From Amphiscolops sp. MND2022 (lineage: Eukaryota), in NCBI GenBank assembly GCA_964187785.1, contig OZ076411.1:46190001-46254000 (forward strand): a stretch of DNA of 64,000 nucleotides, in the 5' to 3' direction. Of the stretch, positions 1-61,300 are shown in pieces (position 1 is the stretch's first letter; every line of letters starts with the position of its first letter). Both the position numbers and the translations under genes were made by a program. Below the pieces are notes generated by a model. The model made no database searches. It saw only the letters and a program-made list of their open reading frames with translations, and was not told the DNA's origin.

Positions 1-185
1 GAAAAATGTAAAGGGGGGACCCTTTTTGATTTATAAACACGCATTCTGTAGCAAAATAACAAAAAACTCAAAGGGGGGACCCTTTGGGGACATTAAAAAA
101 ATTTCGAAAAAAAGTCTCACAGCGCCGAAAAAAATCGAAAGAGGGGGGAGGGAAACTTTAGTCCCGTCCGGGCTTGTATGTAACG
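1..185. repeat. Interspersed repeat family copy (3' part), with aaagggggaccctt motifs
   Basis: Repeated aaaggggggaccctt motifs and a gaaaaaaagtctcaca..gccga..tttagtc..ccgg..atgt(a/t)acg block that recurs at 18950-19025. Confidence 0.6.
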
Positions 186-38032: not shown

Positions 38033-38221
38033 TGTTAACGATATCTTCAACTTGGCAAAACAATGTATAATGGCAAATCTAAGTGAATTGACAGTATCAC
38101 AACATGTGGCGTGAATGAACAATTATTCTTTTTCTCACGCTCCTGCGTTGGCATGTACTTCTGTAAATATTGCATAATGATGTTACTATTTTATATCATG
38201 TTAATTTACAGATCCACCACA
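38033..38221 (-). repeat. 5' LTR (189 bp)
   Basis: Direct repeat of 32973-33161. Confidence 0.95.
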
Positions 38222-39957
38222 AGATGATGGCGGCAAACGCTCTGCTACAGTTTCCAAACAATTGGCTAAAAACAAAAAAGTGTCTTTTTCATATTTTGGA
38301 CGTATTGTACTTCTCGAGTTCTTTGCAAAGTAGTCTTCAATCTGAGTCATTATGGAGATGGGCAAAGGTTTTTTAATTTACTCAGACCACCTTTCGCAAA
38401 GGAAAAATTACGTTTTAATTGTAACGCCAAGCTAGCCAAGCCAGCAGTTTACATCTCATAACTGGGACGATGCCGGATTGCTTATACAGGAGACCATTGT
38501 CTTACTAAAACACTAGACAATAGTTTTTGATCCCAAAAAGGTCTCCTAGGATGGCTGTTCTAGTGTTGAAAAGATTCCTCCTTTTAGAGCTCCGTGGCGA
38601 CATTCCGGCGCACTCGAAGTCCGGACACGTCGCACAAGCACGTAAAAACCTTTCCTAAGGTCCCTGGGACTTCCTACATACCTCCGATGTCTAAAATAGG
38701 TGTTCAGCTGGAGTACATTGTATTTGCGGAAAAAGATCGAAAATGGAGAAAAGAGGGATCTGTTAGATCCGGCACCTTTATAAATATGCAAAATACATCA
38801 ATGGAAACGAATTTACTTAGAATCAGCACTTCAGGCACTATCACGAAGTTTTTGGAGTTTTTGCAATGATCCATGGGTTTCCGGGTCTTCCAAAACTTCA
38901 TCTCCGAGAAGCATTGTTTGGAGCTTTCCGAAAGAGATGACACAACACTGGGACTATTTCTATCTTCTTGCTCTTCTGGTGTTCTTGCATCCAGGGTGGT
39001 GGGGTAGGTTGTTGTGTCTGTCCACTTTTTTCGTCTTCCAGACTGATTTGAACTACCAGCCAGGTCGACCATTTTTATGTGCGATAGTTCACATTTTTGG
39101 ACCAATAAGCTTGACGTTACTCAGACCACTTTTCGCAACGGAAAAAAATACGTTATAATCTTCTTTATCTCATCAATGTTGTCCTGGAACGATTACTTGA
39201 ATCATAGTTCAATAGTATGGTCATGACAAAAAGAAAGAGTTTTTGACGGAGGAGACGTACAAGAAACGAGCAACGGTGAGCAATCCAACCTTCAAGACCT
39301 TGAGCGAGAACTTTTGAATTCAGAGCCTTAAGGCGCCCAAGCGTATGCAAATATGGCACAGGGTTTTATGCGATTTTGGGGAGACAAAATCAAAATTTGT
39401 CAACAGGCATTTAGCCAGAGGTACTTGTGTAAACGATTATTCTTTTAAGAATCCAATTGTCAGACTTTTTTGTCTTCTTCATGCAACTGGTTTACATTTT
39501 TTGTATCATTTGCAGTGTGATAAAACGTGCGCGAATCTTTGAAAAAAAGTTCTCAGAATATAAACTTCGTTTTAGATTTTAGATTGGTCACTTTTTGAAC
39601 AATGTTTTAGCCTCACAAGCATCGAAAGGGGGCCAAAAGAACCCCAACAGAATTTTGACAATTTTGCATTATCAATTTACCACAATTCTGAGACCAAAGA
39701 CTCCAGAAGGTACTCCAATAGAACCTTTCAAGACATAGTCAAGGTTTGAAGCATTTCCTCAAAAACCGCGCGGAGCATATCTGAACCTGGCTGTTCGTTT
39801 TGAGCCATCTCGACACATTCCCGCTGTCTTTTGCTTTTGGCAGCATGTTTGGGAGACTTGAAGGCAGTCGAAAAAAAGTGTGTGTGTGTGAGAGAGAAAT
39901 AGAATGAGAGAGAAAAATAGATTTCGATTTATTAGGTCAGCTAACAATGTAAAGTAC

Positions 39958-40336
39958 TGTTACGACTATTTCTCGGTGTTGTTTTAGGGTTAGTCGCAGT
40001 GTGTATCTTAACGGGAGTGGACGTCCTTGTTACGGGAACATTTTCGGGTTCAGAATCAGAGTCTTGGACGTTCATGTGGACAGTTTGTTTCTTGTTTAAA
40101 GGTGCTATCAGTTTAAGCATTTCCTTTTGGTTCTCTGCAAGTATTTTTGTTAAATCAGACATGATTTCTTTCCTTAGAGACGTTTTTATCTCAATCAGAC
40201 TCTCAGGTTCTATTCTAGGAACTTTGCTAGAGCTAGCTACAAGGTTTTCAGACGGAGAGTGTTCAGTTACAGAGGTTTCAAAATCTCCAGAAACTAACTC
40301 AGCTACAGCTTTCCATTTCTGGCTTCTAGTTGTCAT
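39958..40336 (-). pseudogene. gag: Gag N-terminus copy in the 3' LTR
   Basis: MTTRSQKWKAVAELVSGDFETS...KTTPRNSRN, nearly identical to 53459-53084 and ending at the LTR edge. Confidence 0.85.
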
Positions 40337-42093
40337 TTTTGCAGTTAGAAAAGTAGATTCTCCGGCAAAAGATTTTTGTTCAACGTTAAACAACGAAACA
40401 GTTTAAGTTTACTACAACTCACGAAGTTAACTAACTAAATTTACATGTCCTGTCTAAGTATTTATACCTTCTTAGCATCATTTGTTCCTCACCTAAAAAT
40501 TCCTAGGTATCATAAAAATCGTGTTTGTTCATCAAAAAGCGCTAATGATTCAAATTATTTCAGTCCCGCGTCATGAAATGAGGTATCAAAATTCCTAGTT
40601 GCGTCAGTATTCCGTAAAACTTCGTTGAAATCATTTTTGTTCAGGCGATCCATTTCCTGTCTAAGCCTTAAAACTGCGGCAAATAAAAGTCTAACTTATA
40701 TTTTCATCGGCGTAGGCACGCCGGCGTGATCAATTAGTCAATTCCTAACTCAAGAAAGTTGAGATTCGAAGCAAAAGAATGACTTGCAAAAATTGTAGCG
40801 GAACTGAAACGGAGCAAAGAGAATTTGAGAATGCGGATATTCGGATATTATTGAGGAACAAGCAATGCTAAGAAAATTATAATGATGACCAACATTTAAT
40901 TTGTGTAAACCGAACAACTGCACCTACACTAAACTCAAATTTGACCTATACATGGTCATAACGTAGCAAGTACAAACTACAAAGTACAAATAGGTAACAA
41001 AAAATACACCTGCAGACAACAATTACTTTGCACCCGAATGAACATCGTATATGAATAAATAAGACAGTTATCCTGCAGGAATAGCACTTGGTTTAGATTT
41101 GACGTTATTCTTACGTTACGTTCTGTGAAATATTTTAGCGATAAGTCACTAATTACTGATTACATAAAACTCTTAGTGTAACGTAAGATAAACGTGATTT
41201 AGGAGATTATTGTAATAGCACAGCATCGTTACCCTTTGATCATAGTTCTAACTTCTCTTTACGGTACAACTTTTTACATGAGGACTTATTTCCACAATCC
41301 TTTAAGTGTGTCGATTCAGAAAAAACCTCGTTTGATTTCCGTTTAAACTAATGCTTCATCGCTACTATTTTACGAATTGCTCCGTAGGTGCTCCGTACGT
41401 ATTGAGATCAACTATAGCTGAGCAGCGGAACACAATTTTACAATTCGCTCCGTAGCTGCTCTGTACGTATTAAGATTAGTTATAGCCAAGCAGCAGTAGC
41501 AAACGGAGTTAAAGCGGAGAGCTTAGGCGGATTCATTCTTTCTTTTAGCTAATTGGCGTTGCTAGGGACAACCAAGCGTGGTTTCTATAAACTGGAGCTC
41601 AAATAATTCAACTAAGGAGCGACGCTATTGGTCCGTAAAAATAGAAACACCTATTACCAGCTTAGTTGAGTGACGCAGTCAAGGCGTTCCAAACCTTCTC
41701 TTAAGTTGCTTGATTGCATTCTTAAGTGAATATTGACAACCATTTAACCGCCGGAAAACACTTCCACTAATCTGTCTGTACGTTCTTTCAATTTAGATCG
41801 TATGCACTCCGTTGGGATCTCGGAGTTGAGTATTATTTTCGATGTTTTCATTTTAGTGTGGAACAGAAGAAAAATGATCCCGATTAGGGAATGTTTCTGT
41901 CCTAATGTTTAGATTAGTATGGCTAAAATCAGAAGACAATACCGGAAGTGAGAGTAGCGTTACGCGTGAAAATATTTGACCGGAAGTTTTAGCTAGTTTA
42001 GAATCATTTCTGGAAATATTCCGTAACGCTTACGTTGGATTTTCACATTCGGAGAATTACTTGCAATTAATTTAGCTGTACTGTAAAGAGAGT

Positions 42094-43187
42094 TTAGGTT
42101 AGTTCATCAAAGTTCCTAAGTTCAATGATAATTACCTCGGCCTTGTCCCCGGCCTCTGCCAAATCCTGGGATGCTACTGCAACAGGTGAAATTACGACCG
42201 GGACTGTGTTTGGGGATCTTTCATTTCCCAGAACAGGGATATTTTCTGTCTCCTTTAGAACATGTGTGCGTTTTATTGGGGAGGGCAGACATTGCGGAGA
42301 GTCCGGCTCTTCGTAATAATCCGTGTCAGAGTCAGCTGTTGGTAGGTTGAAAGTGACTCTTCCTATTCTTCTTTTCTTTTTAGGCGTCGGTGCCGTTTTT
42401 TCAGGTGACTCGAAAGTGGAGTTTAGTTCCGCTTCGCTTCCGCGATAGACTTCGACGGAGGAATCACTCAAATATCCCACCATGTTAGGAGGCAGTGTGT
42501 TTAGCGGCGTGCTTGTTTTATTGATTTCCTCATCTGACGAGATGTCGATAACTAGCGAATAGCCGTTCATTTTAGTGGGAAAAATTGATATGAACTATTT
42601 TGGAGAGATTGCAGGCAGTTTGTTGGCAAAGATTTCTTATAATCCTTCGGAAAGTTCAGAAAATTTTAAGTTGGTCAAGCTTCTGTGAAAATTGGACGAC
42701 AAGTGAACGTTTCAAATTCTTTTCCTTCGTGATTTTCATCGAAATTCTATTGGTTGGTTTTTCCGTTTTCGTTCCGGTGCGTCCTGATTTAAGAAAAGGA
42801 AAGTCTTTCCAACTGCGCTGTGATTGGCTGAAACTTGTCGGAAAAGTTTCTAATTTTATCTTCCGTTTCTTTCTCGGTTAATGACGTAATCACGTCATCG
42901 ATTTCTTCTCGAATATTCTGCGTTCCTAATCCGTAATTTTTAAAATGACATCTTTTCAGAACTTCTTGATGATTTTTATCCACCTGTAGAATAACTTGGA
43001 GACGTTTTGTTTCCATCAATGCCATAATAGGCTTTCACTAAAGTTGAAGATTAGAGGATTTTTCCAAATACGTAAGGATGACGTTGTTAATTTTTTTAAG
43101 GGTATTTACGTTCATTTGGCGTGATTGTTCTTCTTTGCTGATTGTTGTTTTTGTTTTAGATTTCTTTTGAGAACAACTGTTCGCCAT
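42094..43187 (-). pseudogene. LTR cargo gene 2, unknown product (sense to gag-pol), disrupted
   Basis: MANSCSQKKSKTK... is in frame with MALMETKRLQ... across TAG TGA (43040-43035). Ends in the 158-codon acidic/Ser-Pro ORF 42570-42094 with an NLS-like PKKKRR. Confidence 0.5.
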
Positions 43188-46100
43188 GGATGAAGATTCT
43201 GATCTCCCTCCTCTCACTCCTGCTCCCAAAACTGGGTTCGTTAGCGGAAATGAAACAAACTTCTGTTTCACTGACGATGACGTCTTCCATTCCGAGGTGG
43301 AGGTTACAGTTACTTCCTCAGGTTGGTAAAAATCTTTCTGACTTCCATGGGTATTTGGACTATTGTTTTTTGGTGATCAGCCGGTTTAGTCTTACCCGAA
43401 ACTCTGACGTGTCTGAATCCAGATCTTGATTTTCAGTAACTCAACCTGGCACTTCTTTGGCTGTTGTTCCCGTTACTTTGGCGGATGAAACTTTTGTCGT
43501 CAACACAGAAATGTCAACATTGGAGCCTTCTGTTGTTCCTCTTTCTTGTGCCTCTAATCCTGTGATTTCACCAGTTTGCACTGTTACTAGTGCACAACCG
43601 ACTCGTTGGTTCCCGTGGATTGTGTGGTTGGGTCACTTGCTTCCCCTGATGTCAGGACCTCGTGTGCTGTTCTCCCTGAGCTGTCCGGAATACTTTCGTC
43701 TGGACTGGCATTGAATTTGGAAACCCAAGTAGGTGAGGCTGATCCCCCCACTAGTGATGAAGGAGGTGACGAGGACGAAAGCCAGCCGGGAGGTGCGGGT
43801 AATATCATTTTGTAGTGAGCAGGGTTTGCATTGTGTTATTTTGTTCACTTCCTAGATAATGTTCTTTGTAGGTTCAACCGTATTTCCATTCCGAAAGGTG
43901 AACGTGCGCTTTGAAACACCTCCCAAACGACGGAAGGAAGGTGAGTCCGCGATTGCTTTCCAAGGGTGTAGCAGCCAGAGTGGCGATCTTGTTCCGTCAT
44001 CTGAGGCTAAATATGCTGTTTTTCCCGAGATGAAAGAATTTGGTCGGCATCTGATGGCGGAAGTGGAAGCCCGTACGAGATAACATTTAGAGTCTGGTTA
44101 GTTAGATGATTATTGCATTGGTGTGAGTTTTGTTTCTGTGGTATCTGTATGTTATTGATGTTATTGCCTGGAGGGTATGCGCTTGGCCTGGAGTTTATAT
44201 TGGGCTGTTTATTGTAGGCTTCAGCGAACTTGTGGACAAGGTGGAAAGTCGTTTGGAGCGTCCAAAAAAGAAATACAGCAGTCGTAATTTGATTCATCGT
44301 CGGATGCAGTCTCTAAATCCTGTCTTTGGGGATTTTGTGACGGGCTCACAACGTGGTAGTGCTGAGGTTTTCTTCTGCCGGGTATGCAAGCGTGATGTGA
44401 AGATGGGCTCGCATGGTTCATCGGAATTTGTTCGTCACTTCGAGTCCAAGAAGCACATGGAGCAAGATGTGGTGTACCGTTTGCACATGGGGCTGCCGAC
44501 ATACAACAAATTAATGGAACCAATGACCCTGTCTAGTCGTCAAGAGGAAGAGTTTCGTTCCCGACCTTTCGTCAATTTGGGTCCTGAATTTCCTTTTCCC
44601 GAAGATTTGTTGCCAAAGCATTCAAGGGTTGGTTCGAAAGTTCCTTTTATGACCCTTGTTTCCTGCTTCTGTGACTGGTTACGTAGTGGCGGCGATTTTT
44701 CTTTGGTGCGACGGCTGTGGGGGCATTTCCTGGCTACGTTGGGCAAGCGTGAGCCCGAGTCCACTCTGAAGTTGAGTCGTTCTGAAACTGCGGTGAGTAT
44801 GATATTTGTGCATGGTAGTTGCTAGGGTTGTTGTTTTGCTGCCACTGGTTTTGAAAAAATCTAGAGCGGGGGGAATATTGGAAATCATATTCATTAGTGT
44901 GTTGTATCTGTGTTTTTATAGTCGTTCCTGTGTCAAGGCGTTGCTCCGCGAGTGTTACGTGTCGTTCTGAATGGTGCATCTGCTTTCGGTGATTATTCTG
45001 TGCAATACGAGAAAGACACTGAGGAGGAACGCTGTTTCATTGTCTTTTGGGAAGAAGAGCATCTCAAGAAGGTCTGCATTGGTAGTGAGCCATTGGAGCA
45101 GCTTGTGCCGTATGCTGAAATCACGCCCTTGTCTCGGTTCGTGTGTTGTTTCCAGAGTGTGAAACTTCCTGTGTCGATAGCTGGAGTCAGTCCGTCTTTG
45201 CTACGCGTGTTGAGTGATAATCGTGTTGACGGGAAGAAGTTTGTGGTCTGTCAATCGTTCACTGGTTGCGCGGGGGGGTTGTGGTTCCTTTCCTCAGTGG
45301 TCATTATTTCTGTTGTTTTCTAGATGCAGGGTAAAGATTGGTTGCTGGTGGCGGATAATCTGATTGTGTATCGATTCAGATTGCTTCGTTTCATTCTCGA
45401 CACATGTGAGTTTACTTTGCGTTCTTTGTTTCCCTTTGACTGTATCTGACTTGGTGTATTTGTGATTTGACTATGTTGACTTTGATTGTTTGTCGCCATT
45501 GGGAATAGCATATATCCGTATCTGTGAATATGTCGTTTTGCTTTAGACTATATCAACTTTGAGAAACTGGAACAAGGACGGAGTGGCTACGCATTTCATG
45601 CATACGGCGAGGTTTGCAATTTCAATTACTGCTTGTTGTTGAAGACGCGAGTGTCGAAACATCTCCCTGGCATAGTCGAGTGGGAAGAGTATATGGATGC
45701 GTCTGCAGTCAGTACTTTCACCAGCATTCCCATTCACGAGTTTCTGATGAACTATGAGTTCGGGAGGTTATTGTCAGAAGGAAAAACAAATGATTTTGTG
45801 ACGTTTCGTCTTCGATGTCGTGAGTTCATCGACCGCCTGATTGTGATGTTGCTGAAGACTACCAGTACTACGTCGGCTGTTAGTAAAGGCCTGTACAGCT
45901 TTTGTCCAGAGATGATGCTGGAGAGCGACGACACTACCGCGTTTGCATTATTTGCTGGTTTGTGTAAAGTGTTGGAAACTTGTGGTGTCATTGCATTTGA
46001 TGTGTCCAGGGTTGCCGTGGAAGAGTATACCAGTTATGTGGTGGAAAGGCGGAAAAGCCATTTGAGTTCTGGGCAGGCTGCAAGTGCTATTACGGATGTG

Positions 46101-46707
46101 GTACGTTATCTGTTGTTGGATTTTGGTTTCCAAGCGCGGCATCGAATTCTTCGTGTACTTAAACTTTGCTGTTTATTCGTGGGGATGCCTGCTGTCAAAT
46201 ACCCTGCTGTGACTTTTGATCTTAGTGGTAGTGCTTGGGAGCCTCGATCTTTCCAAAACTGCTTGCGTCTTGTGCAATCGTACGTTATGTGTGCGGGGTA
46301 TTCTCCTCAGGGTCTCTTCAGTGATCAGACTGTTAGTGCTGTTCAACGAGCTGTATCCGATGCTGGTATTTTCTTCGTGACTGCTGGGTTTGATTTGTGG
46401 AGTAGTTTTTACCGTGCTGATAGTGATGCTTTTCTTACGCAGCAAGCGACCCTGTACAACGAGTTTTTGGATGAACGACGCAAGGCCTTTGATGCTGAAT
46501 ATAGTTCTTGTAATGCTGCTAATAGTCTGCCTCGCGTATGTGCCGGTAGTAAAACCTCCAGTCGCCGGTCACATTCTGAATGCTGGTACAGTGTTCCAGA
46601 AAAAGAATGCGAGTGGGTCGAAAAAATCCGTTTTCGGTAGCAAGTTGGATGCTCCTATTTTGTCAAAAAAGAAAAAGAAGCCGGTGAAGAAACCTTCGAA
46701 CAATTGA
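43186..46707 (+). pseudogene. LTR cargo gene 1: 7-exon gene for a zinc-finger, hAT-transposase-like protein, antisense to gag-pol, two frameshifts in this copy
   Basis: Exons 43186-43321, 43437-43792, 43872-44072, 44218-44792, 44922-45245, 45324-45405, 45547-46707. GT-AG introns with phases 1,1,1,0,0,1. Zinc finger FFCRVC-x16-H-x5-H. Frameshifts near 43598 and 46540. Confidence 0.7.
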
Positions 46708-46890: not shown

Positions 46891-48740
46891 CTAGTCTTGA
46901 GTTGGACGTGAGTCCTCCGTAGTAGCTGAGTCAAGCATTCGAAAGTCAGGATTGACATTAGGTCTCGGATTAGGTCGTAAGTTGTATCTTCCCACTTTTC
47001 TAGGATTATATCCAACGACGAAAGGCGGCTTTTCGGGAGTTTTGGGAGGGCTTTGTATCGGTGGTGGAATCAAAATATATGGATTGGGGCTGATATCTAG
47101 GTCAAATGACCTAACGTTGTCGGAGGGTGTTTTATCCTCTTCAGTATTTTCATTTGTGGCTGTTTGAACCACGTCATTTTCCGTTGTAGCTTCGCTTCTT
47201 TCTGTTTTAACCACGTCATTTTCCGTTGTAACTTCGCTTGTGGCTGTTTTAACTACGTCATTTTCCGCTGTAATTTCGCCGTTTTCTGTTGCGTCTGCAA
47301 TTTCTGTAACTGTAGCTTCTTCGGCGGCGTTTTCCGTAGTGTTTCCGATTAGAACTTCTCCGAATTCGGTTTCCCAAGCTTGCGCGTACCAATCATTGTG
47401 GGTTGTTTTAACCTCTGGATCTGGAAGGTAATCTTCCCTTCTGACTGTTACGTCAGGTACTCGCTGATGGGCGCATATAGCCTTAGGCGAATTCTATGGA
47501 GAGTTTGAGTTTACCGAGGTCCCGTGCGACGTACGACGTAGTTGTTGTTTGAGAGTACTTTGACGACTATGTAGGGACCAGTCCAAATGCAGTCTTTGAA
47601 AGCGAATTTCATCGATTGGTTGTCTGCCTTCGGATTAAGAACGTAGCAGTAGTCGTTGACTTTGAGCGGTGTAGCCGTTGCTTTCTTGTCATAGTACTGT
47701 TTGTATTTGAGGTAAGACAGCATTAAGTTCTCTTTGGCGGCTTGGTGTATTTCGTTTATTTGTTTCTGTAGTTGATCCGTTAATTCTTCGTTGTGATCTT
47801 TTTCGCAATTAGGTTTCAATCCGAGTTTGATGTCCAAAATGTTGTACGGGATGCCTCCGTGAAATACTGTTGTAGGTTCGCAGCCTAGACTTTCATGGTA
47901 GCTCGTATTGTAGTTCATGACTGCGATCTGGACGTATTTGTGCCACATGGAACGTCGTTCTCCCGTAGATATTTTTAGTGAAGTTTTCAATGAGGCATGT
48001 GTTCGTTCTAGTATACCAATCGTTTGGGCATGTTTCGTTGATGCATGGTTTATCCGTATGTCAAGCGTTTGAGCTATTTGATTGTCTACCTCCGATCTGA
48101 ACTGTGATACTTTATCCGTTAGTATGACGGTTGGTAGGTAGCAATGCCTTGTCATGGCATCAATTATACATCGTGCCACTGTTTTTGCTGTCATGTCCTG
48201 AGTCGGGTATGCGAAAAGGTAACGCGAGAAGACATCCATCATTGTGTTGATATCCATTTGAGGAAGGTAGATTCGGTAAGATGTCTACTTCTAGGCAATC
48301 CTCTGGTCCCATTGTAAATTCAGTGTTGCTTAGCACTTTGGGACGTATCTGTCTCGTGTCAGTTCTTTTGTTGGCAATGCAATCTGGACAACTGGTTACC
48401 CAAGCTCTGATTTTGCGTGCAAGACCCAAAGTATTTCGCTCTGCATTCCTGTATCATTTTGGTAATTCCTGGGTGCTCATTTGTTTTCCCATGCAAAGTG
48501 GACAAAAGTTCTGGGACTAGGTGTTTTGGGATTATGATTTGATTGTGTGTAACTGATCCGTCTTCTCCGTAGTACTTCCGCATTAGAACTCCATCTTTCA
48601 TTATGATTCTTTCTTCGTGTCGTAATAGGTTTCGTCCTCGTTGTTCAGTTTTGAGAAGAGGTTTGTCATATTCTTCGTGTGAGATCCGTTGTTTCAGTGC
48701 TTTGAGGAGAGGATCTGCATCTTGTTCGTAGACTGCGGAG
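46891..48740 (-). pseudogene. pol: Integrase (HHCC, core, GPY/F) with a low-complexity C-terminal tail, frameshifted
   Basis: HGKTNEHPGITK..C..C, VDILPNLP, ILTDKVSQF, HAQTIGILERTH, WTGPYIVVK. The tail ends GRYNLRPNPRP...*. Confidence 0.9.
47167..47290. repeat. Three 42-bp tandem repeats (14-aa TTENDVV-type repeat) in the integrase tail
   Basis: aaccacgtcattttccgttgta.cttcgctt... three times. Confidence 0.85.
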
Positions 48741-48841
48741 TTGAGTGGTATCTTGATGACTTCTGTTACTTTTGTTGATAGTTCTTTCTCGTGTTCGTCT
48801 ATAGCACGTCGCTTGCTGAGTGCTTTTCGGGCGAAGATTTC

Positions 48842-50588
48842 TTATTCAGATTCGTCGTCTTCGTCTGGTAGGAAGAAAAGTTGTTCTTCATCGGCTACAT
48901 CTGATGATTGTAGATTAACCTCAATTGGTGACGTTAGAATGTCGTCTCGTAGTTTAAGTTGTACTTTCTCTTTCGGTGTGAGTTCAAGTCTGGAGAGAAA
49001 GTCAGCTGCTGTGTTCTGGGAGCCCGCTACGTGCATGATCCGAAATTTGAATTGTAGTACATAATCACAGGCATATCAGAGTGCAGGAGGTGTTGTTTTC
49101 GTCTGGAAGAATCTGGTTACTGAGCGGTTGTCTGTCAAGACCAGCGTTGGAATTGTTGTTTCCCATAGTATATGGCTGTATTCAAGGAAGGCATGGTAGA
49201 TTGCTAAGAATTTCTTGCAGTAGATGGATATTTTCATGATCATTTTCGATCATGATAGCGTAGCCTGAAGCACGAAAGCTTGCATTCGTCATTAGAACGT
49301 ACTGTTTTCCTGCTATGAGCTGTCTGAGTGCGAGTCCACAAGCTTCCGCTAAGCTGGCGTTAATTTCTTTAAAGTTATCTACAAGTTCTTCTGAGATTCT
49401 GATTTTGGAGTCTGCTTTGAGAAGTTCGTACATGCCAACGAGGTTTTCCGACAAGCGCGGTATGTAATTGCGGTAGTAGTTGACAAAACCAATATATTTT
49501 TGAACCTGCTTTTTGAATTTGGGGAAGCGGACTTTGGAGAGGAAATTTTTCACTTTTTGATCTTGCGGAGCTACTCCGTCGGGGGTGATGGTTCGGCCAA
49601 GATATTCAATTTGGGTTACTCCAAAGTGACATTTTTCGATGGTTAGTTTTAATCCTGCCTGTCTAATACACTTGAAGACTGCTTTGATGTTCTTTATGAG
49701 CTGTTCAGTTGTATTTGCGGCAATGCCAATGTCATCTACATATTGTGCACATTGGTCTGCCTTGATGACTGAATCCAGATACTCACGCATGAAGCTCGAA
49801 AAGGCTGATAGAGCTCTGCTTAGTCCTTGTGCCAGGCGACGGTAGGCGAACGTCCTACTAGCAAAATTGAAAGCAAGTAAATCTACTGACCTTTGATATG
49901 CCATTTGAAGGCAGTGGTACGCTTGGGAGCAGTCAAACTTGCAAAATTGTTTTTTCCCTGCTAGGTGTTGGGCCGCATCTGAGAGGGTGCTGACAGGGTG
50001 GTTGTTGTTGATGTAGTCATCTGCTATGAGTGCGTTGACTTTGCGCAGATCTAACAGTAGCCTCAGCTTGCCGTTGGGCTTTCGTTGTGCAAATATGGGA
50101 CTGGCGTACTTGGAGAAGAGGAGTGTCGTAATGATACCGTATCGATGCATGAGGGCCAGTTCCACAGTCAGATCTTCTTTCAGGTTGATGGGGACTGGTA
50201 GGCTTTGTGTGTAGACTGGTTTGTCGTCTTGTGGGGTTAGGCTGACTTTGAATTGCGTGTTCATCCCGATGTCTAGCCGGTGTCGAGCAAAGATGTCGTT
50301 GAATTCGACAATGGTGTCTTCAAGGTTTTTGCGGTCGTTACCCGTAATCAGTGAATCTGTCAATTTGAACATTGATAGAAATTTGTTTCGGGACTCTTCA
50401 TTTTCCGTTGGGTCGAGTTTTTCTAGGTCGGCAAGGTCTCGCAGTTCTTTCAAGATTCTTTTTTGTATGGGCGAGTGTTCTTGTTCATTGCCTGGGTGTT
50501 CTGGGGTTGGGAACCAGAATTTCTCTTCATTGTCTTCGGGCCGCTCTACTTGCATTAATTGCATTAATGTACGTGACCACATCGTCAT
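48842..50588 (-). pseudogene. pol: Reverse transcriptase and RNase H
   Basis: LRLLLDLRKVN, FDCSQAYH, LAQGL, QYVDDI. RNase H VLMTNASFRASGYA has the catalytic D changed to N. HVAGSQNTAADFLSR. Confidence 0.95.
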
Positions 50589-50743
50589 GTTCGGTGAGAA
50601 GATTCAGGGCGGCTATGTCGACTGGACGGATCATCTTTGTTTCTTCGGGTTTCAGGATTTGTAGTTCGGCTATTTTGGTGTCAGTAGCTATTGTGTATGG
50701 GAAATCCGTGGTATTGGCGATTTTAATTGGTACCTTTTTATCT

Positions 50744-51909
50744 CTAGCTGGTAATTGCTGGGGCTACTATTACTTTCGCGCATTCGTCAAATTGTGGTAA
50801 GGGTTGTATTGTGCCAGTTATTGAATGTTCGGTACTCACGGGGATTGTTGCGTAGATGATCCGGGTAGAGTGCGCTGGGATTGTGTGCTTGCCTTTGGTC
50901 TTTATTGTGATGGGCTTGGGATTGCACTTTTGTCTTTCATCTGTGAGTGCCATCGTGATTTGGATCTTAAGGAAGTCGATGGTTCCTTGTGCAGTGTCGA
51001 GAATTGCGGCGTGTTTACGTAGGAACGCTAATCCGATTATGGGAAATGATGTTTGAGTCATGATGATGAATGTTTCTTCAAAGGTGTAGTCCCCTATTTT
51101 GAAGCGTAGGGTGTACGTGGCGAGTGGTTGTTCTAATTCGGCATTAGCGTACTGTACTTTGAAAGGGGGTGGAGGTGCTTTTTGACAATACATTGATTAG
51201 CGTGCTGGCGGAGTTATTCAGTGTCTCTTTCACTAATAGCGTTAATGTACGCACCTGAGTCGACTAGGGGCACCGGGCGTCGATTTTGACTGTGTTGAAT
51301 TCGACTGGTAGAAAAAGCTTTCGTTTTTTCTTCTTGAGAGCGATGGCGGACATTAACGGAATGTAGTCGTCATCTTTGTCATGTTGGATGAATTCCTTGA
51401 TGGCATCTAAATCTTTGAGTTTTGAGGGACATTCCGTGATTTCTACGTCGTCGTTTGTCAGTGCTGTGACGGGCGCGATTTTTGGAGGAGTTACTGGAGG
51501 GTCGGCTTTCTCTCGTTTTCCTCTTTCTTGATGTGCCCATATTGTATGTATCTTCAATGCATATGATGTTCTCTGCGTCTATCGGTGTGGACGTGATGGT
51601 GACGGGTACTGTTGGGGATGGTGTTGTTCTTTTCAGGATCGGTGACAGCGTTGATGGTAAGTTTGTGATCTCCGTAGATTGGGCTTGAGGATTTGAGACT
51701 TGGATTTTGAAGGATAGTTTATTTGTGTCATAGATAGTTGGTTCATCCCAGGGGTCACATCTATAGTCTCTGTCATATATATAAATTCGTTCTGTTTTTG
51801 ATTCCGGCAACGGTCTTTTGAGTGTCGCATAGTTATCGGGCGACTCCGTTATCCACTGGGGTTGTGGTATTGGATCTTCTGGGTGTCTGGTGTTATGCCT
51901 GAGTATCAT
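50744..51909 (-). pseudogene. pol: Gag-pol spacer and aspartic protease, frameshifted
   Basis: ALVDSGAY at about 51270-51250 and PIIGLAFLRKH. Confidence 0.8.
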
Positions 51910-52052
51910 GCCTACGTTCCAACGGCGTTGCCAGTCTTGAGTTGGTTCTTCATTACATTCGGTTAAAAAATCATCCTCATATCTGTTTGGGGGGTCCTCT
52001 ATCGTGTACGCCCTCGCGTCTACTTTTTCCCCAAATCGTAGGCGCGGCGATT

Positions 52053-53459
52053 TCAGTTTTTTGGCTGGGAGGACGGTGTGGGTACGGATTGTTCACCAAT
52101 TTTGTTGGTTGGAATGGTGAATTCTCGTTTCTTCCTTCTGGGGTCATTTGCCGCATTAGCTCCGTTCCAACAGTTCTCAGTTTTGTGCACCTTTCCACAT
52201 GTATCACACTTGGGTTTGGGTGCTTCGTTTTGGGCTGGGTCTTTTGTGGTTGTTTTGGCGATATTGCAACGTTCTCGTTGGAGTTTGCGACACTGTGCTT
52301 TATAGTGGCCATATTTGCCACAGTGAAAGCAATGACCTCGTTGCTGTTGGTCTTTTTTATTGTCCGTCACTACAGCGTCCACTGTGTTGAGTGGGACTAG
52401 GGTTGTTTCATCAGGCGCACCTAGTCCATTTAATCTCATCTCCCTCTCAAGATGCAAAACTATGTCGTTGTAGGGCTTATTTTCCAAATATGCCCCGTTG
52501 AGGATCTTTTTGACGTGATCCGGCATTTTGGCGTATATTGCCTTATCAATGAATCTTTGCGCTTCGGAACCGAACACTTCTTTCGCAGTTTTTTGCAGGG
52601 TGTCAAGGAACTCATGGAGTTTCTGTTTAGTGGGGTCAAAATGCAGCGCATCCCACTCGCATCTTGCCTTAGCAGATGAATGGAAGCTGCCAAAACGACG
52701 TTTGAATGCCGTTATGACTTCTTCTATGTTGTCTTTTTTAGTGTCGTCTAGATTGCAATACGCTGGTAGCGCGTTTCCTCGTAGGAGTGAGTGGAAGTAG
52801 TTGATCCTTTGTATCTCGGTTAAGTGAGGGTACATTTTGATAATATTTCGGAATAGGTCCTCAAAAAGTTCAAACTTTTCGGACTTACCATCGAAGACTG
52901 GAAGCGAAGCAGTGAGTCCTTTCAGCATCGGAAGTAGATTGGTAGATGGAAATGTCTGCGGTTGTGGCGCGAACAGTATTTTAGATGTTAAAGGACGGTC
53001 TTTTGTTTGCTCGCTGGATGCACGTTGTTGTTTCGGTCTTTTCGTGGGTTGGTTGGTAGAGTCATTGAAGACTCCTGTCACCATGTTACGACTATTTACC
53101 GGTGTTGTTTTAGGGATAGTCGCAGTGTGTATCTTAACGGGAGTGGATGTCCTTGTTACGAGAACACTTTCGGGTTCAGAATCAGAGTCTTGAACGTTCA
53201 TGTGGACAGGTTTTTTCTTGTTTAAAGGTGCTATCAGTTTAAGCATTTCTTTTTGGTTCTCTGCAAGTATTTTTGTTAAATCAGACATGATTTCTTTCCT
53301 TAGAGACGTTCTTATCTCAATCAGACTCTCAGGTTCTATTCTAGAATCTTTGCTAGAGCTAGCTACAAGCTTTTCAGACGGAGAGTTTTCAGTTACAGAG
53401 GTTTCAAAATCTCCAGAAACTAACTCAGCTACAGCTTTCCTTTTCTGGCTTCTAGTCAT
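52053..53459 (-). CDS. gag: Gag (468 aa), intact ORF, first 125 codons inside the 5' LTR
   Basis: LPVFDGKSEKFELFEDLF capsid-like region; CFHCGKYGHYKAQC zinc knuckle and a second CDTCGKVHKTENC motif. Confidence 0.9.
   Translation of the reverse strand: MTRSQKRKAVAELVSGDFETSVTENSPSEKLVASSSKDSRIEPESLIEIRTSLRKEIMSDLTKILAENQKEMLKLIAPLNKKKPVHMNVQDSDSEPESVLVTRTSTPVKIHTATIPKTTPVNSRNMVTGVFNDSTNQPTKRPKQQRASSEQTKDRPLTSKILFAPQPQTFPSTNLLPMLKGLTASLPVFDGKSEKFELFEDLFRNIIKMYPHLTEIQRINYFHSLLRGNALPAYCNLDDTKKDNIEEVITAFKRRFGSFHSSAKARCEWDALHFDPTKQKLHEFLDTLQKTAKEVFGSEAQRFIDKAIYAKMPDHVKKILNGAYLENKPYNDIVLHLEREMRLNGLGAPDETTLVPLNTVDAVVTDNKKDQQQRGHCFHCGKYGHYKAQCRKLQRERCNIAKTTTKDPAQNEAPKPKCDTCGKVHKTENCWNGANAANDPRRKKREFTIPTNKIGEQSVPTPSSQPKN
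53070..53083 (-). promoter_or_regulatory. Primer-binding site TGGTGACAGGAGTC (tRNA-Leu-like), embedded in the gag reading frame
   Basis: TGG directly after the LTR terminus CGTAACA. One mismatch to the TGGTGTCAGGAGT tRNA-Leu PBS. The tRNA identity is inferred. Confidence 0.8.
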
Positions 53460-55345
53460 TTTTGCAGTTAGAAAAGTAGATTCTCCGGCAAAAGGTGAAT
53501 TCTTCGAAGAAGATTTTTGTTCAACGTTAAAACAACGAAACAGTGTAAGTTTATTACAACTCCCGAAGTTACCTAACTAAATTTACATGTCCTGTCTAAG
53601 TATTTATACCTTCTTAGCATCATTTGTTCCTCACCTAAAAATTCCTAGGTATCATAAAAATTGAGTTTGTTCATCAAAAAGCGCTAATATTTCAAATTAT
53701 TCCAGTCCCGCGTCATGAAATCAGGTATCAAAATTCCTAGTTGCGTCAGTATTCCGTAAATTTCCGTTGAAATCATTTTTGTTCAGGTGATCCATTTCCT
53801 GTCTAAGCCTTAAAATTGCGGCAAAATAAAAGTCTAACTTATATTTTCATCGGCGTAGGCACGCCGGCGTGATCAATTAGTCAATTCCTAACTCAAGAAA
53901 GTTGAGATTCGAAGCAAAAGAATGACTCGCAAAAATTGTAGCAGAACTGAAACGGAGCAAAAGGAATTTGAGAATGCGGATAATCGGATATTATTGAGGA
54001 ACAAGCAATGCTAAGAAAAATATAAAGATGACCAACAATTAATTTGTGTAAATCGAACAACTGCATCTACAGTAAACTCAAATTTGACCTATACATGGTC
54101 ATAACGTAGCAAGTACAAACTACAAAGTTCAAACAGGTTGGAAAAAATACACCTGCAGACAACAGTTACTTTGCACCCGAATGAACATCGTATATGAATA
54201 AATAAGACAGTTATCCTGCAGGAATAGCACTTGGTTTGGATTTGACGTTAATCTTACGTTACGTTCTGTGAAAGGTTTTAGCGATAAGTCACTAATTACT
54301 GATTACATAAAACTCTTAGTGTAACGTAGGATAAACGTGATTTAGGAGCTTATTGTACTAGCACAGCATCGTTACCCTTTGATCATAGTTTTCACTTCTC
54401 TTTACGGTACAACTTTTTACATGAGGACTTATTTCCAGAATCCTTCAAGTGTGTCGATTCAGAAAAAACCTCGTTTGTTTTTCGTTCAAACTAATGCTTC
54501 ATCGCTACTATTTTACGTATTGCTCCGTAGGTGCTCCGTACGTATTGAGATCAACTATAGCTGAGCGGCGGAATACAATTTTACAATTCGCTCCGTAGCT
54601 GCTCCGTACGTATTAAGAATAGTTATAGCCAAGCAGCAGTAGCAGACGGAGTTAAAGCGGAGAGCTTAATCGAATTCATTCTTTCTTTTAGCTAATTGGC
54701 GTTGCTAGGGGCAACCAATCGTGGTTTCTATAAGCTGGAGCTCAAATAATTCAACTAAGGAGCGACGCTATTGGTCCGTAAAAATAGAAACACCTATTAC
54801 CAGCTTAGTTGAGTGACGCAGTCAAGGCGTTCCAAACATTCTCTTAAGTTGCTTGATTGCATTCTTAAGTGAATATTGACAACCATTTAACCGCCGGAAA
54901 ACACTTCCACTATTCTGTCTGTAAGTTCTTTCAATTTAGATCGTATGCACTCCGTTGGGATCTCGGAGTTGAGTATTATTTTCGATGTTTTCATTTTAGT
55001 GTGGAACAGAAGAAAAATGATCCCGATTAGAGAATGTTTCTGTCCTAATGTTTAGATTAGTAGGCTAAAATCAGAAGACAATACCGGAAATGAGAGTAGC
55101 GTTACGCGTGAAAATATTTGACCGGAAGTTTTAACTAGTTTAGAATCATTTCTGAAAATACTCCGTAATGCTTACGTTGGATTTTCACCTTCGGAAAATT
55201 ACTTGCAATTAATTTAGCTGTACTGTAAAGAGAGTTTAGGTTAGTTTATCAAAGTTTCTAAGTTCAATGATATTTACCTCGGCCTTGTCCTCGGCCTCTG
55301 CCAAATCCTGGGATGCTACTGCAACAGGTGAAATCACGACCGGGA
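53084..55345 (-). repeat. Truncated 5' LTR (2262 bp retained)
   Basis: Matches 39958-42203. Homology stops abruptly at acgaccggga|. Confidence 0.9.
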
Positions 55346-58300
55346 GCGGTTCCTGACAAGTACTTAGCAGCCAAACCGATAAGGACGAAGAATGAACCGG
55401 ATAGCGCTTCATGTTCCCGCTCCCGTGTTTTGAATTTGTGCAAGAAAGTCTTTTTATACTGACATCCCAAGATTTTTCTTCAACCTTTGCAGCATCTGAC
55501 TTTTTGGGAGCAATTATGGAACCTATTTTAAACGTTGACCCAATTTTAGCTGATTGAATTTCCTCTAAGTGTGTCAATTTCAGATTGATTTTTACAGCAA
55601 CACTTTCTACTGCATAGCTCTGACAAAATTGTGTTTAGGGCTTCCTCGGGATCCTTTTTGAAATCTGTGAAAATGGAGGATTGCTTCTCACGTTTCTTTT
55701 AAGGTCATTTTCTTATCGTAACATCAACCCAAAGACAAGTTTCTAAAATAGACATGTAATTGCGTCAAAAAACCAATCAGAAGTTGTGCTAAAACAACCG
55801 ATTTTTTGGATATTGTCCCATGTGTCTTCTAGTCTGGAAATTTCTCCGCTTTTAGGCAATGCCATTTCCGTCTAAAGCTACAAATTCTATTGTTTGAGGA
55901 AGCTGAAGTCGACAAAATCTCCCAGCATTTCGTTGTTTGGACCTTTCTCTCGTTTCTTCGGAAAACGATGTCTTTTTGATGTTTTTGAAACAATCGCGCT
56001 ACTGTAAAAGTATCAAATAAACATTTTGTGTCAATTCGTAGCTGCTTTCGTTTTGTTTATTTTGATTTGGAAAAAAATAGTGTGGAACAGAAGAAAAATG
56101 ATCCCGATTAGAGAATGTTTCTGTCCTAATGTTTAGATTAGTAGGCTAAAATCAGAAGACAATACCGGAAATGAGAGTAGCGTTACGCGTGAAAATATTT
56201 GACCGGAAGTTTTAGCTAGTTTAGAATCTTTTCTGAAAATATTCCGTAATGCTTACGTTGGATTTTCACATTCGGAGAATTACTTGCAATTAATTTAGCT
56301 GTACAGTAAAGAGAGTTTAGGTTAGTTTATCAAAGTTTCTAAGTTCAATGATAATTACCTCGGCCTTGTCCCCTGCCTCTGCCAAATCCTGGGATGCTAC
56401 TGCAACAGATGAAATCACGACCGGGAGCGGTTCGTGACCAGTACTTAGCAGCCAAACCGATAAGGACGAAGAATGAACCGGATAGCGCTTCATGTTCCCG
56501 CTCCCGTGCTTTGAGTTTGTGCAAGAAAGTCTTTTTATACTGACATCCCAAGATTTTTCTTCAACCTTTGCAGCATCTGACTTTTTAGGAGCAATTATGG
56601 AACCTATTTTAAACGTTGACCCAATTTTAGCTGATTGAATTTCCTCTAAGTGTGTCAATTTCAGATTGAATTTTACAGCAACACTTTCTACTGCATAGCT
56701 CTGACAAAATTGTGTTTAGGGCTTCCTCGGGATCTTTTTTGAAATCTGTGAAAATGGAGGATTGCTTCTCACGTTTCTTTTAAGGTCATTTTCTTATCGT
56801 AACATCAACCCAAAGACAAGTTTCTAAAATAGACATGTAATTGCGTCAAAAAACCAATCAGAAGTTGTGCTAAAACAACCGATTTTTTGGATATTGTCCC
56901 ATGTGTCTTCTAGTCTGGAAATTTTTCCGCTTTTAGGCAATGCCATTTCCGTCTAAAGCTACAAATTCTATTGTTTGAGGAAGCTGAAGTCGACAAAATC
57001 TCCCAGCATTTCGTTGTTTGGACCTTTCTCTCATTTCTTCGGAAAACGATGTCTTTTTGATGTTTTTGAAACAATCGCGCTACTGTAAAAGTATCAAATA
57101 AACATTTTGTGTCACTTCGTAGCTGCTTTCGTTTTGTTTATTTTGATTTGGAAAAAAATAGTGTGGAACAGAAGAAAAATGATCCCGATTAGAGAATGTT
57201 TCTGTCCTAATGTTTAGATTAGTAGGCTAAAATCAGAAGACAATACCGGAAATGAGAGTAGCGTTACGCGTGAAAATATTTGACCGGAAGTTTTAGCTAG
57301 TTTAGAATCTTTTCTGAAAATATTCCGTAATGCTTACGTTGGATTTTCACATTCGGAGAATTACTTGCAATTAATTTAGCTGTACTGTAAAGAGAGTTTA
57401 GGTTAGTTTATCAAAGTTTCTAAGTTCAATGATAATTACCTCGGCCTTGTCCCCTGCCTCTACCAAATCCTGGGATGCTACTGCAACAGATGAAATCACG
57501 ACCGGGAGTGGTTCGTGACCAGTACTTAGCAGCCAAACCGATAAGGACGAAGAATGAACCGGATAGCGCTTCATGTTCCCGCTCCCGTGCTTTGAGTTTG
57601 TGCAAGAAAGTCTTTTTATACTGTCATCCCAAGATTTTTCTTCAACCTTTGCAGCATCTGACTTTTTAGGAGCAATTATGGAACCTATTTTAAACGTTGA
57701 CCCAATTTTAGCTGATTGAATTTCCTCTAAGTGTGTCAATTTCAGATTGATTTTTACAGCAACACTTTCTACTGCATAGCTCTGACAAAATTGTGTTTAG
57801 GGCTTCCTCGGGATCTTTTTTGAAATCTGTGAAAATGGAGGATTGCTTCTCACGTTTCTTTTAAGGTCATTTTCTTATCGTAACATCAACCCAAAGACAA
57901 GTTTCTAAAATAGACATGTAATTGCGTCAAAAAACCAATCAGAAGTTGTGCTAAAACAACCAATTTTTTGGATATTGTCCCATGTGTCTTCTAGTCTGGA
58001 AAATTCTCCGCTTTTAGGCAATGCCATTTCCGTCTAAAGCTACAAATTCTATTGTTTGAGGAAGCTGAAGTCGACAAAATCTCCCAGCATTTCGTTGTTT
58101 GGACCTTTCTCTCATTTCTTCGGAAAACGATGTCTTTTTGATGTTTTTGAAACAATCGCGCTACTGTAAAAGTATCAAATAAACATTTTGTGTCACTTCG
58201 TAGCTGCTTTCGTTTTGTTTATTTTGATTTGGAAAAAAAAGTGTGGAACAGAAGAAAAATGATCCCGATTAGAGAATGTTTCTGTCCTAATGTTTAGATT

Positions 58301-61300
58301 AGTAGGCTAAAATCAGAAGACAATACCGGAAATGAGAGTAGCGTTACGCGTGAAAATATTTGACCGGAAGTTTTAGCTAGTTTAGAATCTTTTCTGAAAA
58401 TATTCCGTAATGCTTACGTTGGATTTTCACATTCGGAGAATTACTTGCAATTAATTTAGCTGTACTGTAAAGAGAGTTTAGGTTAGTTTATCAAAGTTTC
58501 TAAGTTCAATGATAATTACCTCGGCCTTGTCCCCTGCCTCTGCCAAATCCTGGGATGCTACTGCAACAGGTGAAATCACGACCGGGAGCGGTTCGTGACA
58601 AGTACTTAGCAGCCAAACCGATAAAGACGAAGAATGAACCGGATAGAACTTCATGTTCCCGCTCCCGTGTTTTGAATTTGTGCAAGAAAGTCTTTTTATA
58701 CTGACATCCCAAGATTTTTCTTCAACCTTTGCAGCATCTGACTTTTTAGGAGCAATTATGGAACCTATTTTAAACGTTGACCCAATTTTAGCTGATTGAA
58801 TTTCCTCTAAGTGTGTCAATTTCAGATTGATTTTTACAGCAACACTTTCTACTGCATAGCTCTGACAAAATTGTGTTTAGGGCTTCCTCGGGATCCTTTT
58901 TGAAATCTGTGAAAATGGAGGATTGCTTCTCACGTTTCTTTTAAGGTCATTTTCTTATCGTAACATCAACCCAAAGACAAGTTTCTAAAATAGACATGTA
59001 ATTGCGTCAAAAAACCAATCAGAAGTTGTGCTAAAACAACCAATTTTTTGGATATTGTCTCATGTGTCTTCTAGTCTGGAAATTTCTCCGCTTTTAGGCA
59101 ATGCCATTTCCGTCTAAAGCTACAAATTTTATTGTTTGAGGAAGCTGAAGTCGACAAAATCTCCCAGCATTTCGTTGTTTGGACCTTTTTCTCATTTCTT
59201 CGGAAAACGATGTCTTTTTGATGTTTTTGAAACAGTCGCGCTACTGTAAAAGTATCAAATAAACATTTTGTGTCAATTCGTAGCTGCTTTCGTTTTGTTT
59301 ATTTTGATTTGGAAAAAAATAGTGTGGAACAGAAGAAAAATGATCCCGATTAGAGAATGTTTCTGTCCTAATGTTTAGATTAGTAGGCTAAAATCAGAAG
59401 ACAATACCGGAAATGAGAGTAGCGTTACGCGTGAAAATATTTGACCGGAAGTTTTAGCTAGTTTAGAATCTTTTCTGAAAATATTCCGTAATGCTTACGT
59501 TGGATTTTCACATTCGGAGAATTACTTGCAATTAATTTAGCTGTACTGTAAAGAGAGTTTAGGTTAGTTTATCAAAGTTTCTAAGTTCAATGATAATTAC
59601 CTCGGCCTTGTCCCCTGCCTCTGCCAAATCCTGGGATGCTACTGCAACAGATGAAATCACGACCGGGAGCGGTTCGTGACAAGTACTTAGCAGCCAAACC
59701 GATAAGGACGAAGAATAAGGCGGATAGCGCTTCATGTTCCCGCTCCCGTGCTTTGAGTTTGTGCAAGAAAGTCTTTTTATACTGACATCCCAAGATTTTT
59801 CTTCAACCTTTGCAGCATCTGACTTTTTAGGAGCAATTATGGAACCTATTTTAAACGTTGACCCAATTTTAGTTGATTGAATTTCCTCTGAGTGTGTCAA
59901 TTTCAGATTGATTTTTACAGAAACACTTTCTACTGCATAGCTCTGACAAAATTGTGTTTAGGGCTTCCTCGGGATCTTTTTTGAAATCTGTGAAAATGGA
60001 GGATTGCTTCTCACGTTTCTTTTAAGGTCATTTTCTTATCGTAACATCAACCCAAAGACAAGTTTCTAAAATAGACATGTAATTGCGTCAAAAAACCAAT
60101 CAGAAGTTGTGCTAAAACAACCGATTTTTTGGATATTGTCCCATGTGTCTTCTAGTCTGGAAATTTCTCCGCTTTTAGGCAATGCCATTTCCGTCTAAAG
60201 CTACAAATTCTATTGTTTGAGGAAGCTGAAGTCGACAAAATCTCCCAGCATTTCGTTGTTTGGACCTTTCTCTCATTTCTTCGGAAAACGATGTCTTTTT
60301 GATGTTTTTGAAACAATCGCGCTACTGTAAAAGTATCAAATAAACATTTTGTGTCAATTCGTAGCTGCTTTCGTTTTGTTTATTTTGATTTGGAAAAAAA
60401 TAGTGTGGAACAGAAGAAAAATGATCCCGATTAGAGAATGTTTCTGTCCTAATGTTTAGATTAGTAGGCTAAAATCAGAAGACAATACCGGAAATGAGAG
60501 TAGCGTTACGCGTGAAAATATTTGACCGGAAGTTTTAGCTAGTTTAGAATCTTTTCTGAAAATATTCCGTAATGCTTACGTTGGATTTTCACATTCGGAG
60601 AATTACTTGCAATTAATTTAGCTGTACTGTAAAGAGAGTTTAGGTTAGTTTATCAAAGTTTCTAAGTTCAATGATAATTACCTCGGCCTTGTCCCCTGCC
60701 TCTGCCAAATCCTGGGATGCTACTGCAACAGGTGAAATCACGACCGGGAGCGGTTCGTGACAAGTACTTAGCAGCCAAACCGATAAAGACGAAGAATGAA
60801 CCGGATAGAGCTTCATGTTCCCGCTCCCGTGTTTTGAATTTGTGCAAGAAAGTCTTTTTATACTGACATCCCAAGATTTTTCTTCAACCTTTGCAGCATC
60901 TGACTTTTTAGGAGCAATTATGGAACCTATTTTAAACGTTGACCCAATTTTAGCTGATTGAATTTCCTCTAAGTGTGTCAATTTCAGATTGATTTTTACA
61001 GCAACACTTTCTACTGTATAGCTCTAACAAAATTGTGTTTAGGGCTTCCTCGGGATCCTTTTTGAAATCTGTGAAAATGGAGGATTGCTTCTCACGTTTC
61101 TTTTGAGGTCATTTTCTTATCGTAACATCAACCCAAAGACAAGTTTCTAAAATAGACATGTAATTGCGTCAAAAAACCAATCAGAAGTTGTGCTAAAACC
61201 ACCGATTTTTTGGATATTGTCCCATGTGTCTTCTAGTCTGGAAATTTCTCCGCTTTTAGGCAATGCCATTTCCGTCTAAAGCTACAAATTTTATTGTTTG

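Follow-up and report, generated by a model that had tools for sequence, protein, structure and literature searches.

Introduction

In Ty1, a retrotransposon of Saccharomyces cerevisiae (Ty1/copia, Pseudoviridae), only about 13 codons of gag lie within the 334-bp long terminal repeat (LTR). The primer-binding site of this element is located inside the GAG ORF, at nucleotides 94–104 of the RNA (PMC4974528), and the genomic RNA starts at nucleotide 241 of the element (PMC5408680). An "unusually deep inset" has been described for Tca5 of Candida albicans, whose single ORF begins 382 bp into a 685-bp LTR (PMC4139406). By subtraction, the LTR-encoded stretch of Tca5 amounts to approximately 100 codons (PMC4139406). 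Tca5 belongs to the copia group (Ty5-like), has one ORF, an initiator-Met primer and few solo LTRs, and its true start is described as unclear; that review mentions no selection test (PMC4139406). In Ty3 (Metaviridae type), the 5' primer segment adjoins the 5' UTR, and Gag3 is a protein of 290 aa that comprises capsid, spacer and nucleocapsid (PMC4974528).

Here we analysed a 64-kb stretch (the window) of the 1.07-Gb genome of Amphiscolops sp. MND2022, which carries an LTR retrotransposon on its minus strand. The first-pass annotation of the window had taken it as established that gag normally starts downstream of the primer-binding site. This is not a general rule, as Ty1 (PMC4974528) and Tca5 (PMC4139406) are known exceptions to it. 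With Ty1 the element shares a primer site within gag and a region around the start that is both coding and cis-acting. Unlike Ty1, which has the copia-type pol order and an initiator-Met primer, it is of the gypsy type and uses tRNA-Leu, and it and its relatives carry 125–195 LTR codons that include a selected helix. In contrast to Tca5, it belongs to the gypsy group and to a family of very high copy number, selection on the LTR codons could be shown, and the phase of the junction is kept across families. The likeness to Ty3 comprises the PR-RT-RH-IN order, the TG...CA ends, the 5-bp duplication and, as a weak match, a PNMA2/Arc-like capsid. The difference from Ty3 is that here an LTR of 2.0–2.5 kb supplies a quarter of Gag. 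Narrow phrase searches of the open literature returned no gypsy gag that starts in the LTR, and PMC5408684, PMC3095310 and PMC4202319 yielded none either; a gypsy precedent for this layout may exist.

Results

Anatomy and class of the element

The element is delimited by two direct repeats, which were initially paired in the window at 53084–55345 and 39958–42203 with 95% identity. The true limits of the 5' LTR (55358–53084) were fixed using other genomic copies with identical ends. These copies, solo LTRs among them, each carry their own 5-bp target duplication. In the 3' LTR of the window copy the first 13 nt are gone together with about 370 nt ahead of them, including the purine tract, which in siblings is found as a AAGAGGGGCCC-type sequence before the 3' LTR. 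With its pol in pieces and its 3' LTR clipped, the window copy of the element is dead. The coordinates of all features are collected in Table 1.

Table 1. Features of the element, in coordinates of the window.
Feature	Position	Strand	Basis or remark
5' LTR, 2,275 bp, TGTCA...GTAACA ends	53084..55358	-	repeat comparison and genomic copies
Target-site duplication GTACT, upstream copy	55359..55363	-	sequence
Target-site duplication GTACT, downstream copy	39953..39957	-	sequence
3' LTR, 5' end clipped by deletion	39958..42203	-	95% identical to 5' LTR
TATA box	53601..53608	-	123–165 nt before gag ATG in 13/13 elements; local conservation peak
Initiator-like TTAGTT; predicted start at A 53578, 30 nt past TATA	53575..53580	-	pyrimidine-to-G excess just upstream, read as cap copying
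Predicted 119-nt leader without ATG, no codon-position bias	53460..53578	-	
gag ORF, 468 aa: capsid at about residues 186–345, then two Cys/His knuckle motifs	52053..53459	-	
LTR-encoded gag codons 1–125: basic MTRSQKRK motif, one helix and disordered linkers	53085..53459	-	
Helix, gag residues 43–76, predicted parallel coiled coil	53232..53333	-	model
Junction codon ATG = Met126 (RN-MVTGV): last LTR base A and primer-site TG	53082..53084	-	
Primer-binding site for tRNA-Leu(CAG), 13 nt of complementarity, in-frame reading (M)VTGV	53071..53083	-	
pol, broken, RT then integrase, several frames	46891..52092	-	frames and Pfam
Antisense open frames between pol and 3' LTR, part of the element	44127..46640	+	
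3' LTR copy of N-terminal frame: 126 codons and 5 flank codons, then stop (131 aa)	39941..40336	-	

A repeat of this kind could also result from a segmental or tandem duplication that cut gag by chance, without any LTR being involved, and the 5' side of the window copy does adjoin a tandem array of 1,081-bp units. Yet the TG...CA ends and the 5-bp target duplications, seen here and in unrelated insertions, already refute this explanation. Solo LTRs exist as well, and siblings possess both primer site and purine tract. We thus regard a mere duplication as practically impossible and treat the repeats as LTRs.

The array itself (96–100% identity) covers window positions 54971–64000 and about 730 bp beyond. 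Its unit consists of about 720 bp of flank, the target duplication and the first ~360 bp of the 5' LTR. Since the unit contains the target duplication and the LTR start, the array was amplified after the insertion.

We assigned the element to Ty3/gypsy because the pol of a sibling is closest to Ty3 Gag-Pol with RT ahead of integrase: among solved structures Ty3 Gag-Pol was the best match (E 6e-41), with integrase matches further on. In an unbroken sibling pol lies in the -1 frame relative to gag. The further hallmarks of gypsy elements were found, namely two direct LTRs, TG...CA ends, a short target duplication, a tRNA primer site after the 5' LTR and, in siblings, the purine tract, together with a gypsy-type RT, the pol order PR-RT-RH-IN and a retroviral-type capsid with a Cys/His knuckle. 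Integrase does not precede RT as it does in copia elements, such that the resemblance to Ty1 and Tca5 concerns the layout only. No clade name (Mag, Osvaldo, CsRn1 etc.) appeared among the 120 RT matches listed.

The antisense frames ahead of the 3' LTR are open and begin with a CxxC...H...H motif. The identity of this module to siblings is only 62–69%, compared with about 90% for their LTR and gag-pol, a divergence that fits a swapped cassette. Just past the 3' LTR, at 34800–39120 (-) of the window, there are remnants of another gypsy-type pol (RT, RNase H), which is older. Two stop-free frames at 15908–17974 (-) and 24605–26578 (-), of 688 and 657 codons, gave no Pfam match above the cut-off. 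For the related pol proteins P0325 and P0340 the precomputed domains include PF00692 (dUTPase).

The gag frame across the LTR end and the primer-binding site

The gag ORF of 468 aa that the first-pass annotation had reported from 53459 was recovered at 53459–52053 (-). The same applies to the LTR end at 53084 and to the 125 gag codons assigned to the LTR: from the gag ATG to the LTR end we count 376 nt, i.e. 125 codons plus 1 nt. The reading of the primer site as (M)VTGV is likewise correct, with Met126 being composed of the final A of the LTR and the TG of the primer site. The site pairs over 13 nt with the 3' end, with CCA appended, of a tRNA-Leu(CAG) gene from the same genome. The 3'-end motif of this tRNA-Leu has 811 matches genome-wide; of six loci that were retrieved, only one was predicted to be a tRNA gene. 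A long tandem array of the motif with a spacing of ~296 bp lies at G000:C8:35.59-35.66 Mb.

Downstream of the junction, gag matches the Pfam family DUF1759 (E 1e-8), and the knuckles were read from the sequence. Fold matches of the capsid to PNMA2 and Arc were weak (E 0.008–0.3), and a fold search with the complete gag model returned nothing at E ≤ 0.001.

The 3' LTR had been described as carrying the same 126 codons and as halting exactly at its terminus. The first part agrees with our data: the 3' LTR holds 379 nt, i.e. 126 codons plus 1 nt, and its protein is 90% identical to that of the 5' copy, the two frames of the window differing at 13 nonsynonymous and 3 synonymous positions. The second part has to be corrected, as only the homology stops at the terminus while the frame runs on for 5 codons.

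The start of the gag frame lies 376 nt within the LTR and the frame is kept through the primer site; the LTR codons are likely translated as the true N-terminus of Gag.

Selection on the LTR codons

The distribution of variants over codon positions was determined for 29 copies that were chosen by DNA similarity and are thus less biased than sets obtained by gag searches. Variants common to at least 3 of the 29 copies occurred 14/12/43 times at the first, second and third position of the LTR codons (chi-square p 2e-6). The same count gave 5/3/44 in the capsid, 26/21/23 upstream of the TATA box and 22/16/16 in the leader. Private variants in the LTR codons of the 29 copies were flat (61/49/56); they are mostly post-insertion decay.

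For the ratio of nonsynonymous to synonymous substitutions we used a set of 12 elements with 66 pairs, 11 of them unsaturated. Over the LTR codons dN/dS was 0.07–0.19 in ten of these eleven pairs and 0.43 in the remaining, close pair. For codons 44–80 values of 0.04–0.07 were obtained in 9 of 10 computable pairs, which is near the capsid values. Between subfamilies with 53–57% gag identity the motif TTRSQKR and the helix pattern are kept while the linkers drift. These comparisons provide good support for the 3' part of the LTR being coding and under purifying selection between subfamilies. The earlier proposal that the end of the LTR (R/U5) has become coding is supported, as far as coding itself is concerned, by the third-position excess and the low dN/dS; its wording implies a direction, and either U5 may have gained coding or the LTR end may have moved into gag. 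Across copies the LTR codons were found to evolve under constraint rather than neutrally between subfamilies.

The same data bear on the question whether Gag starts solely at Met126, with the upstream frame being open by chance or being held by RNA or DNA signals in R/U5. The junction ATG does have an A at -3 and a G at +4, and 12 of the 13 elements retain it; this context is forced by the integrase end and the primer site. The third-position excess, the dN/dS near 0.1 and length changes that keep the frame indicate a constraint on the protein, and four in-frame ATGs lie upstream (codons 1, 58, 72 and 87). A start at Met126 only is hence very unlikely, and we retain the start inside the LTR.

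Predicted self-association of the LTR-encoded helix

A Pfam search with the LTR-encoded part of gag gave nothing, and the ESM Atlas matches for the 125 LTR codons (first matches 0.80–0.81) were of low recognition and uninformative. In the structural model of the N-terminus the helix of residues 43–76 is the only confident one, with a pLDDT of ~85 over residues 51–70, and the remainder is disordered. A three-copy model of residues 35–85 (pLDDT ~70) scored 0.35, which is barely over the coiled-coil mark of 0.32, and the best of 3 controls scored 0.01. A three-copy model is beyond the calibration, and amphipathic helices can pass by likeness. Of 30 solved pairs 21 attain the mark, compared to none of 23 single chains (17 of 29 and 0 of 30, respectively, for eukaryotes). 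At least 90% of the contacts agreed between the helix-trimer runs. The modelling supports, but does not prove, self-association of the LTR-encoded helix, which would likely help Gag to oligomerise.

Conservation of the layout across families

In 13 elements that were found, like the 12-element and the distant-family sets, by gag protein or DNA searches favouring open frames, the distance from the ATG to the LTR end was 376–400 nt (125–133 codons) and always 3n+1. The distance from the TATA box to the ATG varied freely. Two further elements have an ATG-to-LTR-end distance of 382 nt. In a distant family with an LTR of 1,728 bp this distance is 586 nt, i.e. 195 codons plus 1 nt, in three of four copies, the fourth being rearranged, and its junction phase is identical to that of all 13 elements. 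A MVTG-like motif ahead of the capsid was present in 12 of 13 long gag representatives.

For very distant families we searched for homology of the N-terminal part. Only P0119 scored (38.7 bits); from the other 8 families 7 remained within their own shuffles and P0144 was marginal (4.3 vs 2.8). A single origin of the N-terminal module is therefore not shown. The distant Gag P0159 contains several consecutive MVTG-like repeats, suggesting a tandem duplication of the LTR-end/primer junction within the frame.

As the junction ATG has a strong context in all families examined, a second product may be considered in addition to full-length Gag from 53459, namely a shorter, capsid-first Gag that starts at Met126 or is made from an internal transcript. 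Ty1 uses an internal transcript to make a Gag that is truncated and trans-dominant (PMC4599808), and by analogy a short Gag could regulate assembly like Ty1 p22. Against such a product speak three more in-frame ATGs that precede Met126, and the junction ATG is a by-product of the sequence CA + TGG. We consider two forms possible though rather unlikely; they would supplement translation from the LTR codons, which remains our main explanation.

Promoter, predicted transcription start and RNA ends

The TATA box is followed after 27–33 nt by an initiator-like motif in 7 of 9 LTRs, and between TATA+30 and the gag ATG no further ATG is found in 12 of 13 elements. At TATA+27..29 pyrimidine-to-G changes were seen in 10 of 96 cells compared to 6 of 768 elsewhere (6 of 32 copies affected), for positions that were picked post hoc and for related copies showing only four patterns. 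This test comprised 32 LTR copies of the window subfamily only, with one locus dropped for an indel. In HIV-1, the same change arises immediately ahead of start sites when reverse transcriptase copies the cap (PMC12172438). The G excess is likely a cap-copy footprint that points to a start at 53578, which we take as support and not as proof. Most likely, transcription starts upstream of the gag ATG.

The similarity of the LTRs drops near 53940; we rejected this as a sign of another start, since it looks like the boundary of a variable U3. A triplet scan placed most best breakpoints at 53530–53690; this signal was weak and driven by the single copy L042.

Regarding the RNA 3' end, no conserved poly(A) signal was found among 9 LTRs, with AATAAA at TATA+53 occurring only in the window subfamily. 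We therefore dropped the assignment of the ATG to U5 as a certainty; RNA is needed for the subdivision of an LTR (PMC3601003). In one element of the distant family (L187-L188; G000:C13, ~24.308-24.310 Mb) the 5' LTR contains an internal duplication, and the 3' LTR is normal. The restart lies 35 nt past the TATA box and 103 nt ahead of the ATG and carries an additional G, which agrees with an RNA start upstream of the ATG; the other end of the duplication is located 347 nt into the gag frame. The duplication is possibly the fossil of a mis-joined strong-stop transfer that would mark both ends of R.

Lone LTRs and read-through frames

According to the first-pass annotation every 3' or solo LTR supplies a promoter plus an N-terminal protein module that reads into the flanking DNA. 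As a description of the sequence this holds, with 36 of 42 3' or solo ends having a junction frame without stop. The evolution of these copies does not bear out more than that. Between the 5' and 3' LTRs within elements we counted 73 nonsynonymous and 24 synonymous differences in 20 of 22 pairs (one mis-paired and one frameshifted pair were left out), giving a pN/pS of 0.87 (p 0.54 against neutrality). The tails in the flanks had a median length of 13.5 codons over 42 ends, the two longest of which were misassigned, compared to 11 codons in control frames (p 0.51). With the inserted copies being neutral and the tails control-like, the read-through frames therefore look like by-products.

Accordingly, a functional product of 3' and solo LTRs that consists of the N-terminal module and a random tail is unlikely, be it as a trans-dominant brake or as a supply for new host genes. 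Each LTR has the promoter and the open frame, solo LTRs exist and the helix is predicted to self-associate, all of which would allow for it, but apart from the neutral pN/pS and the ordinary tails, poly(A) cleavage may end such transcripts ahead of the LTR end, and the one rearranged distant copy hints that the RNA may end within the coding part. Our tests could miss a few co-opted copies or a brake at the population level, the latter being compatible with neutral decay because no single conserved copy is needed.

A wider version of this idea, which we also judge improbable, would make the LTR a portable promoter and oligomerisation cassette that strand transfer reassorts at the primer site onto the capsids of other subfamilies. 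Lone LTRs would then produce coiled-coil fragments without capsid that poison assembly the more, the higher the copy number is, and would be both a copy-number brake and a source of N-termini for host genes. Such a brake would be the N-terminal mirror image of Ty1 p22: the known Gag-fragment restriction factors (Ty1 p22/p18, Drt2) use the C-terminal domain of the capsid (PMC13709905), whereas here the N-terminal helix would be used. If lone LTRs did express a dominant-negative fragment, copy number would be controlled in a novel way.

For annotation, spurious genes from solo LTRs are to be expected from LTR and gene callers. In our protein library, representative proteins that match only profile positions 1–133 and diverge thereafter were already present. 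The MVTG in the middle of Gag provides a marker of the LTR end at the protein level.

Probable recombination at the junction

Co-packaged RNAs give rise to mosaic LTRs and internal crossovers in LTR retrotransposons (PMC6894440), and breakpoints have been reported near U3-R and downstream of the primer-binding site (bioRxiv 10.1101/2022.12.06.519325). A single-copy chimera with an open gag frame and missing pol was observed at G000:C6, ~4.247-4.259 Mb (L141; L159-L160). Its LTRs and 3' end come from one subfamily and its gag, from the primer site onward, from another. To the left of the junction 44 of 44 informative sites agree with the one subfamily and to the right 42 of 43 with the other, such that the break lies between -10 and +16. 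The LTRs of this chimera are 99.3% identical, and it has its own 5-bp duplication. No other of the 75 junction stretches gave a sharp break, in a nearest-neighbour breakpoint scan that is blind to family-wide recombinants. These features fit a reverse-transcription recombinant joined at the LTR/primer junction, an origin that we infer. That its mixed Gag is a working protein is not shown, the chimera being a single copy without pol.

Six further loci (L146, L149, L099, L010, L019 and L017) with discordant subfamilies were rejected as junction chimeras, as they had no clean two-parent breakpoint at the junction. In the accounts of recombination in Ty1, ONSEN and Tf/Tosmo cited above, regulatory parts or whole gag regions are swapped. 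Here, in contrast, recombination would swap a protein module because gag spans the junction.

Other rearrangements were seen at the same part of the element. L047-L048, L017 and L018 (G000:C2:35.686-35.696 Mb) form tandem units of ~4.05 kb, in each of which the LTR is represented by its 3' part; primer site, ~30 nt of gag and then unrelated DNA follow. In L034 (G000:C4, ~4.477 Mb) a second primer site and ~48 nt of gag separate the 3' LTR from the flank.

Discussion

For the start site, the translation, the role of the helix and the origin of the chimera we infer the following scheme. RNA polymerase II would start approximately 30 nt past the TATA box, at 53578, and the ribosome would scan the 119-nt ATG-free leader to 53459. 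From the LTR codons it would make the basic patch, the coiled-coil helix and the linkers. After passage through the integrase end (...AACA) and the primer site for tRNA-Leu (MVTG), capsid and nucleocapsid would be translated in the same frame. The coding stretch of the LTR would double as the template for minus-strand strong-stop DNA and thereby be copied into both LTRs. Strong-stop copying into both LTRs would explain the frame that each 3' or solo LTR carries, without any need for a function there. The second strand transfer would join at the LTR/primer junction and thus inside gag, such that two co-packaged RNAs would yield a Gag with an N-terminus and a capsid of different origin.

A gag that starts inside the LTR is known already from Ty1 and Tca5. 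The present family adds a long, selected N-terminus that is borne by the LTR in a gypsy radiation and one module swap at the primer site. Known from copia elements of yeasts, the layout is thereby extended to a gypsy radiation of large size, in which the LTR encodes more of the protein (125–195 codons) and selection is shown. A fixed strand-transfer joint inside a gene would be a simple route to the shuffling of Gag domains.
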